Part shown: positions 1,606 to 11,857 of the stretch, piece after piece | Position numbering within the stretch: position 1 is the stretch's first letter | How the letters are laid out: every line of letters starts with the position of its first letter | UHGV virus genome: UHGV-1561483 | Strand: one strand, 5' to 3' | DNA length: 16,178 bases | Origin: a virus | Position numbers and translations under genes: made by a program | Notes under the pieces: generated by a model | Told to the model about the DNA's origin: nothing | The model's database searches: none | Seen by the model: the letters and a program-made list of their open reading frames with translations, nothing else

Positions 1606-2067
1606 ATGATTATTAATGAAAACTCTTGGCACTATAAATTATTCAAATTGTTTAACGATGAATGGCAACGACCTAAGACACTATGCGCATATTTTTGGTC
1701 TATTGCCATTCCTACATTTTTCGTTTCTATTTTTGGATGTGCTATACTCGTAGGGCTAACAATTATTTGTGCAGAAAGCCTACAACGTTGGCTTATTTTT
1801 GGTAGTTTATGGACTTTGCTTCCATCAGCATTTATACTTGCGATTTTGGTTGTTTTACTTATTATCGGTTCATTTGTTATTCCTGCACATTTGTGTGAAA
1901 AATATAAAGATTATAAATGGAAAAAGGATTATGCTTTACACGTAGAAAATATTGATAGGGCGTATAAAGGTTTACCTCCTATTCAACCCAAGAAATCGAT
2001 TATCGTTGAATTTTTAAAAGCTCGTAAAGCTAAAGTATGTCCTGTTATTGAATATAAGGCTGAATGA
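1606..2067 (+). CDS. predicted small membrane protein (153 aa, 2-3 hydrophobic helices)
   Basis: AAAGGA (1594-1599) then ATG 1606; long hydrophobic stretches (FWSIAIPTFFVSIFGCAILVGLTIICA, LLPSAFILAILVVLLIIGSFVIP). Confidence 0.6.
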   Translation: MIINENSWHYKLFKLFNDEWQRPKTLCAYFWSIAIPTFFVSIFGCAILVGLTIICAESLQRWLIFGSLWTLLPSAFILAILVVLLIIGSFVIPAHLCEKYKDYKWKKDYALHVENIDRAYKGLPPIQPKKSIIVEFLKARKAKVCPVIEYKAE

Positions 2068-3077
2068 TGAAAACAGTAATGAAAAGCTATTTTGGTAGTC
2101 ATCTTTATGGAACTTCTACCCCAGAATCTGATGTAGATTTTAAAGAAATCTTTGTTCCTCCTGCTCGCGATATTCTTATCGGAAATGTCAAAGAGCATAT
2201 GAGTAAAAACACTAACAACACATCATCTAAAAACACTAAAGATGATATTGACCATGAACTATACAGTCTTAAGTATTTCTTTAAATTAGCAGCAGATGGT
2301 GAAACCGTAGCATTGGATATGCTCCACACTCCACCTGAGCTAGTGGTTAAATCTGATTTACCTGATGTATGGAAATTTATCCAAGACAATCGTTCACGGT
2401 TTTATACAACTAACATGAAATCCTATTTAGGATATGTCCGCAAGCAAGCTTCTAAATACGGTGTCAAGGGTTCTCGTTTGGCCGCATTACGTGATGTATT
2501 GAAAGTAGTTAATCAAATCCCTGAGCAGTGGGTTGATTATCAAGAAGGAATTCCAGATCGTCTCCGACGTACGAAGGTAGAAGATATTAAACATCGTCTT
2601 CCAGAAAACGAGTTCTGTGAATGGGTGTTCCATAATCATGAGAAAACAGGCCCGCAAACGTTCTATACTGTGTTGGGTCGTAAATATCAGACAACGCTTT
2701 CTCTTATTGAGCTTAAGCAGTCTTTGAATAAACTTGATGCTGAATACGGCGAACGTGCTCGTAAAGCTGAAGCGAATGAGGGTATTGACTGGAAAGCTCT
2801 GAGTCATGCTTGTCGTGGTGGACTCCAATTGTTGGAAATTTACAAAACTGGTGACTTAGTTTATCCACTCCAAGATGCTCCATTTATTCTCGACGTGAAG
2901 CTGGGTAAGCATCCATTTAAAACAGTTCAAGAGTTTTTGGAAGATGTGGTCGATCAAGTAGAAGCAGCATCAATTGAAGCTTCTAAGAACGGTATGCAAC
3001 AAAAAGTAGACATGGGTTTCTGGGATGACTTCCTTGAGAGGGTGTATCTCGAAAACCATCGAAGTTATTATAAATGA
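2064..3077 (+). CDS. nucleotidyltransferase-fold protein (337 aa)
   Basis: N-terminal motif GSHLYGTSTPESDVDF (G-S-x10-D-x-D, nt about 2094-2141) typical of pol-beta-type/minimal nucleotidyltransferases, with a downstream acidic ALDMLH that could supply the third carboxylate. ATGATG start overlaps the upstream stop; followed by an intrinsic terminator. Confidence 0.6.
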   Translation: MMKTVMKSYFGSHLYGTSTPESDVDFKEIFVPPARDILIGNVKEHMSKNTNNTSSKNTKDDIDHELYSLKYFFKLAADGETVALDMLHTPPELVVKSDLPDVWKFIQDNRSRFYTTNMKSYLGYVRKQASKYGVKGSRLAALRDVLKVVNQIPEQWVDYQEGIPDRLRRTKVEDIKHRLPENEFCEWVFHNHEKTGPQTFYTVLGRKYQTTLSLIELKQSLNKLDAEYGERARKAEANEGIDWKALSHACRGGLQLLEIYKTGDLVYPLQDAPFILDVKLGKHPFKTVQEFLEDVVDQVEAASIEASKNGMQQKVDMGFWDDFLERVYLENHRSYYK

Positions 3078-3079
3078 TA

Positions 3080-3106
3080 GGGAGCCTTCGGGCTCCCTTT
3101 TTTTAT
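3080..3106 (+). terminator. Rho-independent terminator (GGGAGCC-TTCG-GGCTCCC + T7)
   Basis: Perfect 7-bp GC-rich stem with a UUCG tetraloop (3080-3097) followed directly by TTTTTTT (3098-3104). Confidence 0.85.
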
Positions 3107-3129
3107 TTCAAAAATTTTTTCACAAAACG

Positions 3130-3159
3130 GTTTACAAGCATAAAGCTTTATGGTACTAT
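3130..3159 (+). promoter_or_regulatory. T4-early-type sigma70 promoter (GTTTAC -35, 18-bp spacer, TGG-TACTAT -10)
   Basis: GTTTAC at 3130-3135, TACTAT at 3154-3159, A/T-rich upstream; same architecture as the 4568 and 15390 promoters. Confidence 0.65.
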
Positions 3160-3172
3160 ACAACTATCAACT
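3151..3172 (+). repeat. 22-bp exact direct repeat, copy 1 (TGGTACTATACAACTATCAACT)
   Basis: Identical 22-mer recurs at 4589-4610; covers the -10 and the start of the 5' UTR of two promoters. Confidence 0.9.
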
Positions 3173-3193
3173 GATACGGATTTGGAGAATAAA

Positions 3194-4162
3194 ATGAAAA
3201 CTGTAACTATCAATAAGGGTATCTACTTCGGTAAAGAAATCTCTGGAACTTTTGAGCTCTTAGGCGAATGGTTCCCAGATAATGCTCCGGTAGATGCACA
3301 AGGAGATGGTAAAGTTTTTGTTGAAATTGACGGTAAACGTCGCGGTGTTTGGGTTTACAAATCAGATATTTCATATGATGGTGTAAAAGTTGAAGAAGTT
3401 AAAGAATCGTATGAAGATATGAAAACCCGCATTAATAAAAGATTTAATGTTATGGGAATGATGACGAATGGTATTATTAATGGAAATATTCGTTCATTAA
3501 TTATCTCTGGCGCAGCAGGTATTGGTAAAACGTATTCTTTAGATAAAGCTTTAAATAAAGCAAATGATATTGGATACATTGAATATAAAAGCATTAATGG
3601 TAAAATCTCTGGTATTGGTCTTTATGAGCAGCTTTGGAATAATCGTGAAGAGAATTCTGTCCTTTTGATTGATGATGTGGATGTTTTCTCTGATATGGAC
3701 ATTCTTAATCTTCTAAAAGCTGCTCTGGACACTGGAGAGACCCGTAAAGTCTGCTGGAGCACTGCGTCTTCTTACTTAGAAGAAAAAGGCATTGAGCGTG
3801 AGTTTGAATTTAAAGGAACGATTGTTTTTATCACAAACGTTGACATTGACCGTGAATTAGACCGTGGTACTAAACTTGCTCCACACTTACAAGCATTAGT
3901 GTCCCGCTCGGTTTATTTAGATTTGGGCGTTCACACTAATGAAGAAATTATGGTCAGGGTTGAAGATGTTATTCTTTCAACTGACATGATGCAAAAGCGC
4001 GGTCTTTCTGATGAAGAAACTTATAAAGCATTATCATGGATGAAAGTTAATGTTAATCGTTTACGCAATGTTTCACTGCGTACTGCTCTTTATCTTGCTG
4101 ACTTTATTATGACCGACAAAAACGGTTGGGAAGAAATTGCTGAGGTTACTCTTCTGAAATAA
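3194..4162 (+). CDS. AAA+ ATPase-domain protein (322 aa)
   Basis: Walker A GAAGIGKT (nt 3509-3532), Walker B VLLIDDVDV (about 3661-3687), candidate sensor-1 IVFITN. ORF-track start at 3074 runs through the terminator and promoter, so the start was moved to ATG 3194 after GGAG. Confidence 0.7.
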   Translation: MKTVTINKGIYFGKEISGTFELLGEWFPDNAPVDAQGDGKVFVEIDGKRRGVWVYKSDISYDGVKVEEVKESYEDMKTRINKRFNVMGMMTNGIINGNIRSLIISGAAGIGKTYSLDKALNKANDIGYIEYKSINGKISGIGLYEQLWNNREENSVLLIDDVDVFSDMDILNLLKAALDTGETRKVCWSTASSYLEEKGIEREFEFKGTIVFITNVDIDRELDRGTKLAPHLQALVSRSVYLDLGVHTNEEIMVRVEDVILSTDMMQKRGLSDEETYKALSWMKVNVNRLRNVSLRTALYLADFIMTDKNGWEEIAEVTLLK

Positions 4163-4259
4163 TTCATAAGAGGACTTCTATGACAAAAGGCAGTTCAGAA
4201 ATAGATTATATGGACTGCCATTAAAAAGATGACTAGAATTAAACTGGTGAATGGAGGTA

Positions 4260-4565
4260 ATGATGTTATACTCAAAGGCTCGTGAAATTTACGAAACTAA
4301 AATTAAAGAAGCAGTATTTCAGTTCGCAACAACGATGCGATGGACAAATGATTGGGAGTATTCAAAAAATCATAAGAAGCCCATGGTGACAAGAAAGGCT
4401 CATATGTTAGTGTTAATAGACCGTGAGCAGATTAAAGCCCGAGAAGCCCTCCAGAATCATAAAAAGGCTGCCTTTGAATGGTTTATGGATAACACTGCTC
4501 CTGAGACTAAGAAAGCAGTGAGCGCATGGTTCAGTGGAAAAAATTGCGAAAGAAGTTTCTTTTAG
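4260..4565 (+). CDS. hypothetical protein (about 101 aa)
   Basis: GGAGG at 4253-4257; in-frame ATGs at 4251, 4260 and 4263, start ambiguous (4263 has the best spacing). Confidence 0.5.
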   Translation: MMLYSKAREIYETKIKEAVFQFATTMRWTNDWEYSKNHKKPMVTRKAHMLVLIDREQIKAREALQNHKKAAFEWFMDNTAPETKKAVSAWFSGKNCERSFF

Positions 4566-4567
4566 TG

Positions 4568-4597
4568 GTTTACAAGACTGTTCCTCTGTGGTACTAT
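4568..4597 (+). promoter_or_regulatory. T4-early-type sigma70 promoter
   Basis: GTTTAC 4568-4573, 18-bp spacer, TACTAT 4592-4597; near-identical to the promoter at 3130-3159. Confidence 0.65.
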
Positions 4598-4610
4598 ACA
4601 ACTATCAACT
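4589..4610 (+). repeat. 22-bp exact direct repeat, copy 2 (TGGTACTATACAACTATCAACT)
   Basis: Identical to 3151-3172; embedded in the promoter upstream of the 4626 gene. Confidence 0.9.
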
Positions 4611-4625
4611 ACGGAGGAACAGAAA

Positions 4626-5153
4626 ATGAACGCTAAAGATATTTTCAACTTGGTAAATTACAACGATGGTAAATTTAAATCTGAAGCACAAAGCAAGTTC
4701 TTTAACGACATCTCAATCGGAGGTGAAATTACTGTTGATGGAGGACAAATTTACAAATCCCGTTGGAATTGGATCGTTATTATTGATGAGATTGGTATTG
4801 TAGAAATTTACAAGAATACGAATAAAAATCGTGCATTACACTGGTCTCGTGATACTAACGAACAGTACAAAAAGGATAAAGCATCTAAATTATCTCGTGT
4901 AACTCAAGAAGATATTGAGTTCATCAAGAAAGATATTTTGATGTATGATAACTTAATTGCTGAAGAGCAAGCTGTTATTGATAAATTTGATGAGATTAAA
5001 GCTTCTCGTGAAATTCCTGATTTTATGAAAGAATCAGTAAATGAACGATACTCTCTCATTTCAGAGCGTATTGAAACTTACAAAAAGCAAAGAGCTGAAC
5101 GCCAAAATACTCTTCGGAAGTTTGAAGAACGGTTAAAGACGGTACTCGCATAA
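4626..5153 (+). CDS. hypothetical protein with charged helical C-terminus (175 aa)
   Basis: GGAGG (4613-4617) then ATG 4626; C-terminal third is rich in E/K/R and looks heptad-like. Confidence 0.65.
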   Translation: MNAKDIFNLVNYNDGKFKSEAQSKFFNDISIGGEITVDGGQIYKSRWNWIVIIDEIGIVEIYKNTNKNRALHWSRDTNEQYKKDKASKLSRVTQEDIEFIKKDILMYDNLIAEEQAVIDKFDEIKASREIPDFMKESVNERYSLISERIETYKKQRAERQNTLRKFEERLKTVLA

Positions 5154-6520: not shown

Positions 6521-7549
6521 ATGAAAACTCGTTCTCAAATTGAAGATATGGTTCGTAATGCCAGCTATACCCGTAATGTTATGACATTTTTGTGTGAAAA
6601 TAATTTAGACCCTGATAAAGTTAATCGTGTTATTCATCACTTTAAGTATACGAATAGCAGTGAATGGGTGCGTAATTTTAGTAAAGCGGGGTATATTACA
6701 CAAATGACTGCTCGTGAGCAGCTCACCGATTTCTGTAAAACTATTGATTATAAAAATCCTCTATTTGTTCAAGGCGTTGGTCAGAGTAAGGTCGATTTAT
6801 CAACAGGATTTTTTAATCCAAATCATTATCGTCTTGAATGGAGATTTATTGCTCTATTCCGTAAACAATTAAAGCAAATTTTGTCGACGGCTAGTCGATT
6901 AAAAGGTTCTGATATTAACTTAAAGAATCTGAAATTTGATGGTTATACTCTTCAGATGGAAGTAAGACCATTAAAAGAAAATAACAGAACTGCACGAATT
7001 AGCTTTAAGCCTAATACTAAAAATTCTCTTTCAATTTGTGAATGCCTTAAATCACAGTTGACAGAAGCATTTAAGTATATGGATGTTGTTGCTGCTGTTC
7101 AGTCTAAGATTTTACCTCGTTTTGAGCGAAATTGGGAACATACAACAACGTATGAACTTGATATGATCGTTTCATTTAAATATGAATTTTTGAGAAAGGA
7201 CGAAGTTACACAAGAGAAAAAGCAAGAAGTGCAAGATAACTTAAATTTAAATTTATCCAATTACTCATCAAACGATCCTAAATTTTGGATGTATAGTTCA
7301 GGTAATAAGGATGCATGGAAATTCAATAAAGTGAATTTTCTTCCTGTTGAAAATCCGAGTCTTAAACCTGTTGAAAAATGGCATGCAGATGCGATTGAGA
7401 AGTCTATCAAGGCAGTAGATGATGAACTCGTTAAAGCAACTAATGAAGTGCTAGAAGCTGAAAAGATGCTAGAAAAAGCTCAAGAAAAAGTCAAAAATCT
7501 CACGAAGCAACGTTCTAAACTGAACAATGCACTAAATGCACTGAACTAG
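6521..7549 (+). CDS. hypothetical protein, paralog family member 2 (342 aa)
   Basis: AAGGA (6511-6515) then ATG 6521. N-terminus MKTR..., internal motif LFRKQLKQILSTASRLKGSD, linker PVENPSLKPVEK, heptad-like C-terminal helix. Confidence 0.7.
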   Translation: MKTRSQIEDMVRNASYTRNVMTFLCENNLDPDKVNRVIHHFKYTNSSEWVRNFSKAGYITQMTAREQLTDFCKTIDYKNPLFVQGVGQSKVDLSTGFFNPNHYRLEWRFIALFRKQLKQILSTASRLKGSDINLKNLKFDGYTLQMEVRPLKENNRTARISFKPNTKNSLSICECLKSQLTEAFKYMDVVAAVQSKILPRFERNWEHTTTYELDMIVSFKYEFLRKDEVTQEKKQEVQDNLNLNLSNYSSNDPKFWMYSSGNKDAWKFNKVNFLPVENPSLKPVEKWHADAIEKSIKAVDDELVKATNEVLEAEKMLEKAQEKVKNLTKQRSKLNNALNALN

Positions 7550-7578
7550 TTTACTTTACCACAGGGATGTGGTATAAT
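7549..7578 (+). promoter_or_regulatory. candidate promoter (GTTTAC -35, 18-bp spacer, TGGTATAAT extended -10), overlapped by an inverted repeat
   Basis: GTTTAC 7549-7554, TATAAT 7573-7578; inverted repeat ACCACA-GGGA-TGTGGT at 7558-7573. Confidence 0.55.
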
Positions 7579-11111: not shown

Positions 11112-11251
11112 AACCTTGGTGGGCGGCTAGATGGGAAACTGTAGAGCCAGAGCCGGAAGAACCGGTTTACACTGATGAAGAAACAGTATATAATGAACCA
11201 ACGATAAATGACTTAATTGATATGGAGATGGGACATGATTACAGTAGATAA
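11096..11251 (+). CDS. possible small acidic ORF (51 aa), below the ORF-track size cutoff
   Basis: ATG 11096 to TAA 11249-11251 fills an otherwise apparently non-coding 120-bp gap; overlaps both neighbours by about 16 nt; weak RBS. Confidence 0.25.
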   Translation: MDYAIKPWWAARWETVEPEPEEPVYTDEETVYNEPTINDLIDMEMGHDYSR

Positions 11252-11681
11252 GTGGTTTAGAATTAATCGTGCTGATAAAGGGCTGTGTAATTACTGGCCG
11301 GAACTTAGTGCAGGTACTGTCTTTAAAGTTCGTGAACTTGCAAAAGAATGCGAAGATGATATAGAACCTGATACTGGAATTATTGAAATTGAACTTTCTG
11401 ATGGAAAGATTATTAACATCTACGATAAGCCAATTACGTATTGGTGTTTGTGGAATACTGAATCAGTAGAAAATGGTGAAATTGAAGAAGTCGTAGAACG
11501 AGTTGATCAAGCTATTCATAAACCTAAAGCCGCTTTTCAAGGTGAACGCATTTCATATGCATTATCTAAATCGGCGTTGAAAAAAGATATTGATGATTAC
11601 GAAGGAAATTTAATGCAAGCCGCGGCAGAATATATTGAATGGCTTGAAACTCAAATTTCTTTTTCTGACCGAGCGTTTTAA
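11235..11681 (+). CDS. hypothetical protein (148 aa); sits where I recall T4 pin (Lon protease inhibitor), by position only
   Basis: ORF-track start 11217 is TTG; ATG 11235 follows GGAG (11224-11227). The pin assignment rests only on my recollection of T4 gene order upstream of gene 49. Confidence 0.55.
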   Translation: MITVDKWFRINRADKGLCNYWPELSAGTVFKVRELAKECEDDIEPDTGIIEIELSDGKIINIYDKPITYWCLWNTESVENGEIEEVVERVDQAIHKPKAAFQGERISYALSKSALKKDIDDYEGNLMQAAAEYIEWLETQISFSDRAF

Positions 11682-11857
11682 TGAAAACCGAATTAATTTA
11701 TACTGAAAAGTTAAATGGTGGTAAGGTTTGGAAACTTTTTATTAAAGGAAGTCCTACTGACCCTAATATGACCACTTGTATAGGAACTTATTCTCGTCCT
11801 ACTAAAAAGATGATTCGACAATATAAGCGATTGCATCAAATGTTTTACAATACTTGA
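11681..11857 (+). CDS. possible small ORF (58 aa), below the ORF-track size cutoff
   Basis: ATG 11681 overlaps the upstream stop (TAATG); ends at TGA 11855-11857 just before the gene 49 leader hairpin. Confidence 0.35.
   Translation: MKTELIYTEKLNGGKVWKLFIKGSPTDPNMTTCIGTYSRPTKKMIRQYKRLHQMFYNT

Follow-up and report, generated by a model that had tools for sequence, protein, structure and literature searches.

The window analyzed here, a stretch of 16,178 nucleotides from the virus genome UHGV-1561483, carries an exact 22-bp direct repeat, TGGTACTATACAACTATCAACT, with two copies on the + strand at positions 3151-3172 (copy 1) and 4589-4610 (copy 2). Based on sequence comparison, we conclude that the two 22-mers are very probably the cores of T4-type early promoters of the genes nrdC.10 and nrdC.8, members of a dispersed cassette family that is kept alike by selection together with copying. 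The window is a Tequatrovirus (T4-like) region, matched by ~500 genomes at 95-99% identity, and its + strand corresponds to the early-transcribed strand of T4. Both orthologous sites in T4 carry the identical 22-mer. Similarly, in SA20RB, a near-identical phage in GenBank, both sites are annotated as T4 early promoters.

The finding holds but is not new: T4 early promoters, promoter-early stem-loop (PeSL) cassettes and sites of the endoribonuclease RegB cover everything that we describe. It matters little beyond the correct annotation of the nrdC.10 and nrdC.8 early promoters, both of which are in the T4 reference genome. It does offer a worked example of repeated promoter cassettes, one of which marks a junction where genes are swapped, apparently even across genera, while the other is fixed. 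It also offers a caution: an exact repeat in a phage accessory region need not mean recent duplication or impending deletion.

Anatomy of the two promoters

The two copies lie at an offset of 1,438 bp, and no further match to the 22-mer was found in the window, even when 3 mismatches were allowed; 200 shuffled sequences gave 0. The bases bordering the copies differ (A and G before, G and A after), so that the exact repeat does not extend beyond 22 bp. A second shared motif, GTTTACAAG, precedes both copies (3130-3138 and 4568-4576), and each copy begins 15 bp downstream of its GTTTAC. Both sites have a -35 element TTTACA (GTTTACA), a 17-bp spacer, and a -10 element TACTAT with a TG extended -10, the TGn being TGG at 3151-3153 and 4589-4591, directly abutting TACTAT. 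The 22-mer itself comprises this TGn, the -10 element, six discriminator bases and the first ~7 transcribed bases, with predicted transcription starts at A3166 and A4604, placed 7 nt after the -10. A Shine-Dalgarno (SD) sequence and an ATG follow each copy, GGAGAATAAAATG at 3184-3196 and GGAGGAACAGAAAATG at 4613-4628. The earlier note on this DNA had pointed out the exact repeat, its position in the -10 and early transcribed bases of two promoters, and the SD after each copy, and all three observations hold. The elements of the two cassettes are as follows.

3079-3098, + strand: terminator hairpin after nrdC.11, AGGGAGCC-UUCG-GGCUCCCU (terminator scan; -17.1 kcal/mol, z = -3.8; annotated as a terminator in SA20RB)
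3099-3105, + strand: T-run after this hairpin, which is the stem-loop of the upstream cassette
3106-3129, + strand: A/T-rich UP-like element of copy 1, ATTTCAAAAATTTTTTCACAAAACG (near-identical in the T4 motA, frd.3, imm.1 and e.8 promoters)
3130-3136, + strand: -35 element GTTTACA of the nrdC.10 early promoter (from geometry and the SA20RB promoter annotation)
3151-3172, + strand: 22-mer copy 1, with TGn at 3151-3153, -10 TACTAT at 3154-3159, discriminator ACAACT at 3160-3165, and predicted start A3166 followed by TCAACT (exact match and geometry)
3184-3194, + strand: SD and predicted RegB/S1 target GGAGAATAAAA of the nrdC.10 leader, equal to the published 11-nt consensus GGAGAAUAAAA (PMC1702504)
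4189-4219, + strand: hairpin between nrdC.10 and nrdC.9, GGCAGUUCA...UGGACUGCC (-13.9 kcal/mol, z = -4.7; annotated as a terminator in SA20RB)
4568-4574, + strand: -35 element GTTTACA of the nrdC.8 early promoter, 2 bp past the nrdC.9 stop codon (from geometry and the SA20RB annotation)
4589-4610, + strand: 22-mer copy 2, with TGn, -10 TACTAT at 4592-4597, discriminator, and predicted start A4604 (exact match and geometry)
4613-4623, + strand: SD and RegB site GGAGGAACAGA of the nrdC.8 leader, which is unstructured (the nrdC.8 GGAG is moderately cleaved in T4; PMC1702504)

T4 early promoters are described as being of the UP/-35/TGn/-10 type, with consensus regions beyond the canonical elements (PMC2988021). 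The window sites have the same -35 GTTTAC, 17-bp spacer, TGn and TAnnnT as the T4 early sigma-70 (“uber”) promoters of motA, imm.1 and e.8. As in T4, an A/T-rich element lies upstream, and the promoters are found on the early strand just 5' of an SD and ATG; this strand is common to all prereplicative-type genes identified in the window. The UP-like tract of copy 1, AAAAATTTTTTCACAAAACG, is common to the motA, frd.3, imm.1 and e.8 promoters. That of copy 2, GGAAAAAATTGCGAAAGAAGTTTCTTTTAG, lies within the nrdC.9 coding sequence and is weaker, yet it is conserved in Mosigvirus and Dhakavirus. The window copies show no difference in kind from T4 early promoters, and they differ from their T4 orthologues by few bases outside the 22-mer. 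None of the window's other four GTTTAC promoters has the 22-mer.

We propose that the host sigma-70 RNA polymerase would use the nrdC.10 and nrdC.8 promoters immediately after infection, and that each would yield a short unstructured leader in which the GGAG of the SD doubles as a RegB site. As published, RegB with S1 targets GGAGRAYARAA, in which an A-rich 7-mer comes after a single-stranded GGAG (Durand et al. 2006, PMC1702504). The nrdC.10 leader carries an exact match to it at 3184-3194 (GGAGAATAAAA), a predicted RegB site, and the nrdC.8 leader a partial match at 4613-4623 (GGAGGAACAGA). In T4, the GGAG of nrdC.8 was scored “moderately cleaved” by RegB in primer extension experiments, which detected the nrdC.8 leader RNA during infection and so demonstrate its transcription, though not its start site (PMC1702504). 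The suggestion that the repeat might be a conserved functional element, such as a shared leader or processing site, is borne out in part: the 22-mer is a functional promoter core, and a RegB GGAG does exist, but it lies just 3' of the repeat (11 and 2 nt downstream of copies 1 and 2). The 22-mer is itself not among the known processing sites.

As for a structured leader element, RNA folding predicted both 5' leaders to be unstructured, with a minimum free energy of 0, and this candidate was therefore ruled out. An Rfam search of positions 2900-4900 (E up to 1) gave only sub-threshold chance matches, to the L20 leader and sxy.

A dispersed promoter family and its upkeep

To place the two copies in the context of a complete genome, we assembled the T4 genome (NC_000866) from five pieces; its early strand has 39 GTTTAC-N18-TAnnnT sites. 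T4 contains six exact 22-mers, all on the early strand: on the ndd.6 side (downstream of denB) and at motA, e.8, nrdC.10, nrdC.8 and imm.1. Each lies 15-45 nt 5' of an ATG. Matching ATG coordinates to annotated starts, which is how the paralogues were named, showed that five of these six ATGs are annotated gene starts, while the SD-linked ATG of the ndd.6-side copy, at 167019, is unannotated. Six further copies with 3-5 mismatches are found at ndd.4, frd.3, trna.4, denV and mobD.5, and between motB and cef. Overall, the exact 22-mer is present at 6 of the 39 T4 early-type promoters, and T4-like genomes in IMG/VR contain 3-6 exact copies each. The possibility raised in the earlier note, that the 22-mer is a generic consensus found at most early promoters, is thus half right, since the exact sequence is confined to this minority while a weaker form of its 3' half, CTATCAACT, occurs at many others.

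The promoters are also found in more distant relatives. In both JS98 (Dhakavirus) and Shf125875 (Mosigvirus), each of the two orthologous positions has a promoter, and a Klebsiella phage has one upstream of nrdC.10. In Mosigvirus and Dhakavirus the nrdC.8 promoter likewise overlaps the end of the preceding open reading frame (ORF), and its context, AAAAGTTTCT[T/A]TTAGTT-GTTTAC, is nearly unchanged. The core, however, differs: in these genera it reads TG(T/A)TA(T/C)TATAGACCTATCAACT, and it does so at several promoters within the same locus. The promoter positions are thus old, and the cores look homogenized within each lineage.

We asked how far a shared consensus could account for the identical copies, using a position-independent model built from all 39 sites. 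Under this model ~1e-4 identical 22-mer pairs are expected, compared with 15 observed, and consensus alone is therefore insufficient; we infer copying or gene conversion between cassettes. The 33 promoters without an exact 22-mer show only a moderate preference for the bases in its 3' half, with per-base frequencies of 0.4-0.67 for CTATCAACT.

The flanking segments form a mosaic. Beyond GTTTACAAG and the 22-mer, the two window cassettes share just 48-66% identity (upstream 48%, spacer 62%, leader 66%), whereas distant paralogues are 85-100% identical in the same segments. In the nrdC.10 copy, the segment from the -35 to the spacer matches the frd.3 promoter at 100% identity, the upstream tract matches that of motA at 85%, and the leader matches those of the ndd.6-side and imm.1 copies at ~90%. 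For the nrdC.8 copy, the nearest counterpart is ndd.4, with 90% identity in the spacer and 84% in the leader. Each window copy is thus nearer to paralogues elsewhere in the genome than to its partner. Because this mosaic identity extends over segments with no known constraint, copying appears to supplement selection on the bases contacted by the polymerase. We suggest that the identity of the 22-mer would be kept by selection on polymerase-contact and start-site bases and, in addition, by copying between cassettes through homologous recombination or gene conversion, the phage being one that relies on recombination to replicate.

Among the alternatives, one assigns to ACAACTATCAACT, the 3' half of the 22-mer, a dedicated role in cis, either as the site of a phage factor or as a leader signal for early shut-off, promoter escape or transcript fate; this function, and not promoter strength or copying, would keep it invariant. 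In its favor, this segment is invariant in the six T4 copies while the spacers and distal leaders vary, the related CTATCAACT is kept across genera, and the mechanism that shuts off early promoters has been described as not completely understood (PMC3014915). However, 33 of the 39 early promoters lack the exact element and yet belong to the same sequence-defined class, the leader has no structure and no Rfam match, relatives bearing inserted genes at the nrdC.10 site have changed its last two bases there, and no factor is known. We consider this explanation unlikely. A more specific version, in which ACAACTATCAACT, as discriminator plus first transcribed bases, would define a functional subclass of early promoters, providing a signal for rapid shut-off, promoter escape or transcript fate and not being a mere passenger of gene conversion, strikes us as slightly more doubtful.

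Pure convergence would have each copy selected independently toward the best -10, discriminator and start for the host polymerase, with no copying involved. The 5' half, TGGTA-TAT, is near the general early-promoter consensus, the weaker CTATCAACT is found at many promoters outside the family with the frequencies given above, and reviews describe extra consensus regions in T4 early promoters (PMC2988021). Nonetheless, convergence faces the large excess of identical pairs over expectation, the extension of mosaic identity into spacers and leaders under no known constraint, and the fact that another homogenized core, AGACCTATCAACT, works with the same host polymerase in related genera. Together these make it quite improbable.

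The earlier note raised, as one of two options, a recent promoter duplication, which would have placed one cassette on either side of nrdC.10 and nrdC.9, making the pair mutual closest relatives around a newly bracketed module. The exact 22 bp and common GTTTACAAG, on the same strand and 1.44 kb apart, speak for such an event. This account does not survive comparison with the rest of the family: the low identity outside the motifs, the closer paralogues at frd.3, motA, imm.1 and ndd.4, and the six exact and six near copies in T4 all argue against it. In addition, T4 has the same arrangement, and Mosigvirus and Dhakavirus have promoters at both positions. With positions that are old and cores that differ by lineage, a recent local duplication is excluded as far as these comparisons reach, and we regard it as very improbable.

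Several side observations concern individual T4 promoters. The start annotated for ndd.4 is ATG 166764, the first ATG in ATGGAGGAACAGAAAATG, and it overlaps the SD of its own gene; ATG 166749 looks like the real start. In the cassette between motB and cef, ATATAC replaces GTTTAC, and the cassette precedes an SD and an ATG, at 6557, with no annotated gene. Many T4 early promoters have a spacer complementary to the sequence right after the -10, which creates an inverted repeat across the -10 hexamer (for example at 20612, 65799, 129918, 133331 and 146143), a feature that the 22-mer family lacks. In the window, the nrdC.4 early promoter (7549-7578) reads GTTTAC-TTTACCACAGGGATGTGG-TATAAT, and the spacer in itself makes up a hairpin, TACCACA-GGGA-TGTGGTA; nearly the same spacer recurs in T4 at two unlinked promoters (coordinates 2458 and 50973).

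Gene content at the cassette junctions

The earlier note had also proposed that the two copies are substrates for recombination that would delete or shuffle the intervening genes. We built an artificial deletion junction, in which window 2830-3172 runs directly into 4611-4950, and compared it with 50,697 phage records. Among the 638 matching records, none showed a deletion of nrdC.10 and nrdC.9, and none covers at least 80% of the artificial junction. Relatives lacking exactly the segment bounded by the repeats were thus looked for and not found. The gene pair was never lost, probably because NrdC.10 is conserved throughout T4-like phages, and loss of nrdC.10 is probably selected against. A T4 genome-reduction paper reports unplanned large deletions of nrdC.1-6 and of nrdC.11-mobD.3, and nothing specific on nrdC.10 or nrdC.9. 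We give hardly any credence to the repeats being the ends or target of a mobile element carrying nrdC.10 and nrdC.9 (a homing-endonuclease target or transposon-like cassette): T4-like genomes are rich in homing endonucleases and T4 has mobD two genes upstream, but the segment contains no endonuclease or transposase, is missing from 0 of the 638 relatives and lies in a window that itself lacks mobD, and the repeats are promoters with paralogues at unrelated loci.

The nrdC.11/nrdC.10 junction, at copy 1, does vary, with at least four states of gene content. The T4 and window state, with no insert, is found in 326 records. A two-ORF module with its own second early promoter is found in 155 records, including Enterobacter phage CC31. 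This module also occurs in phage G2540 (3296-3740 of the stretch compared), with 90% nucleotide identity for CC31 and one ORF there annotated as DUF4031, which suggests that the cassette has been exchanged between distantly related T4-like phages. A 66-amino-acid ORF is inserted in 120 records, and in ECO07P1 the insert is a modA-like ADP-ribosyltransferase gene accompanied by its own promoter and a terminator of the frd.3 type. Homology to the window breaks after ACAACTATCAA, within the 22-mer, and is restored from TTGGAGAATAAAATGAAAACT (TTGGAGAATAAAATG) onward; vB_SsoM_113 has its left breakpoint immediately past the ATG. In the insert-bearing relatives it is the nrdC.10 site that carries the change in the last two bases of the 22-mer. 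The prediction of recombination therefore stands for copy 1, which lies at a variable junction with breakpoints inside the cassette, and fails for the specific deletion between the two copies.

These features are those of PeSLs, in which a stem-loop terminator is combined with an A/T-rich tract, an early promoter, an SD and an ATG; PeSLs are concentrated in hyperplastic regions, and their crossovers have been mapped to the A/T-rich tract or to the interval from the -10 to the ATG (PMC2839356). In phages RB49 and phi1, recombination between neighboring PeSLs yields mini-circles (Arbiol et al. 2010, PMC2839356), and PeSLs are believed to be exchanged through general homologous recombination at short repeats (PMC2839356). 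The family was later extended to the T4/PST pair, with the promoter consensus TTTACW-N17-TAYWAT and the ndd.4/ndd.5 exchange as an example (Comeau et al. 2014, PMC4122927); the published ndd.4 cassette is the closest paralogue of the nrdC.8 copy of the window. Copy 1, whose hairpin and T-run stand 31 bp ahead of the -35, shares with PeSLs the order of elements, the intergenic location in a hyperplastic region, the indels between close relatives and the crossovers within the cassette. It is a complete PeSL, showing every PeSL property that could be tested. The upstream cassette would act as a portable junction at which small gene modules are gained, lost and swapped. Integron gene cassettes and phage “morons”, the analogues named by the PeSL authors, are likewise small self-expressed modules at defined intergenic junctions; the present case differs from these in having no integrase or attC site.

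Copy 2 differs from a PeSL in that it has no adjacent hairpin, overlaps the 3' end of nrdC.9 and sits at a stable junction. Of 615 records, 500 cover at least 80% of a 251-bp query across the nrdC.9/nrdC.8 junction, and the sampled relatives at 80-90% identity still span the 22-mer. We class copy 2 as an ordinary early promoter or “half PeSL”. The downstream cassette would represent a stable, ancient promoter.

Several points weigh against early promoters in a cassette family maintained by selection and copying. At the junctions, recombination between these two copies was seen in 0 of the 638 relatives, the copy 2 junction has no homology breakpoint in the sampled relatives, and the hairpin that a full PeSL would have next to the 4568 promoter is absent, the nearest being at 4189-4219, ~350 bp upstream and before nrdC.9. 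With respect to copying, the position-independent model may understate convergence if selection favors one particular combination of bases, and gene conversion is deduced from mosaic similarity, not from direct observation. Finally, our literature search found no transcript 5' ends for this phage or for the two T4 orthologue promoters and gave nothing usable on genome-wide T4 transcript starts, and the nrdC genes go unmentioned in a DksA RNA-seq paper; that the promoters are active in the phage studied here is deduced from its sequence.

Genes of the locus

Mapping T4 proteins onto the window gave the gene order mobD.1, two ORFs, nrdC.11, nrdC.10, nrdC.9, nrdC.8, ... nrdC, pin, gene 49 and nrdD, all on the + strand. 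The T4 protein matches place nrdC.11 at 2067-3074, nrdC.10 at 3194-4162, nrdC.9 at 4263-4562 and nrdC.8 at 4626-5150. The coding sequences (CDSs) that accompany the two promoters are as follows.

3194-4162, + strand: nrdC.10 CDS, 322 amino acids, P-loop NTPase-like, 99% identical to T4 NrdC.10
4260-4565, + strand: nrdC.9 CDS, DUF7203, start at 4260 or 4263; its 3' end holds the upstream part of the second promoter
4626-5153, + strand: nrdC.8 CDS, 98% identical to T4 NrdC.8

NrdC.10 has a Walker-A-like GAAGIGKT, and its Pfam matches to AAA, P-loop and nSTAND families are all sub-threshold, so the “ATPase” label that it had been given is plausible but unproven. Homologues of NrdC.10 are found in 1,312 phage records, including Klebsiella, Acinetobacter, Aeromonas, Vibrio and jumbo phages. 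With a gene this widely conserved, the segment between the repeats is not the dispensable accessory module that it had been taken for. The last few residues of NrdC.10 differ from T4 (322 versus 325 amino acids), and the alignment stops at residue 316. The neighboring NrdC.11 is an RlaP-type nucleotidyltransferase.

Two further differences from T4 were observed in the window. The homing endonuclease gene mobD, which in T4 lies between mobD.1 and nrdC.11, has no match, and its place (1082-2067) is taken by the two ORFs, of 173 and 153 amino acids. In addition, T4 pin, the Lon protease inhibitor, matches the window in two pieces ~128 bp apart, with residues 1-146 at 11235-11672 and residues 144-161 at 11801-11854, which suggests an insertion or rearrangement near the 3' end of the gene.

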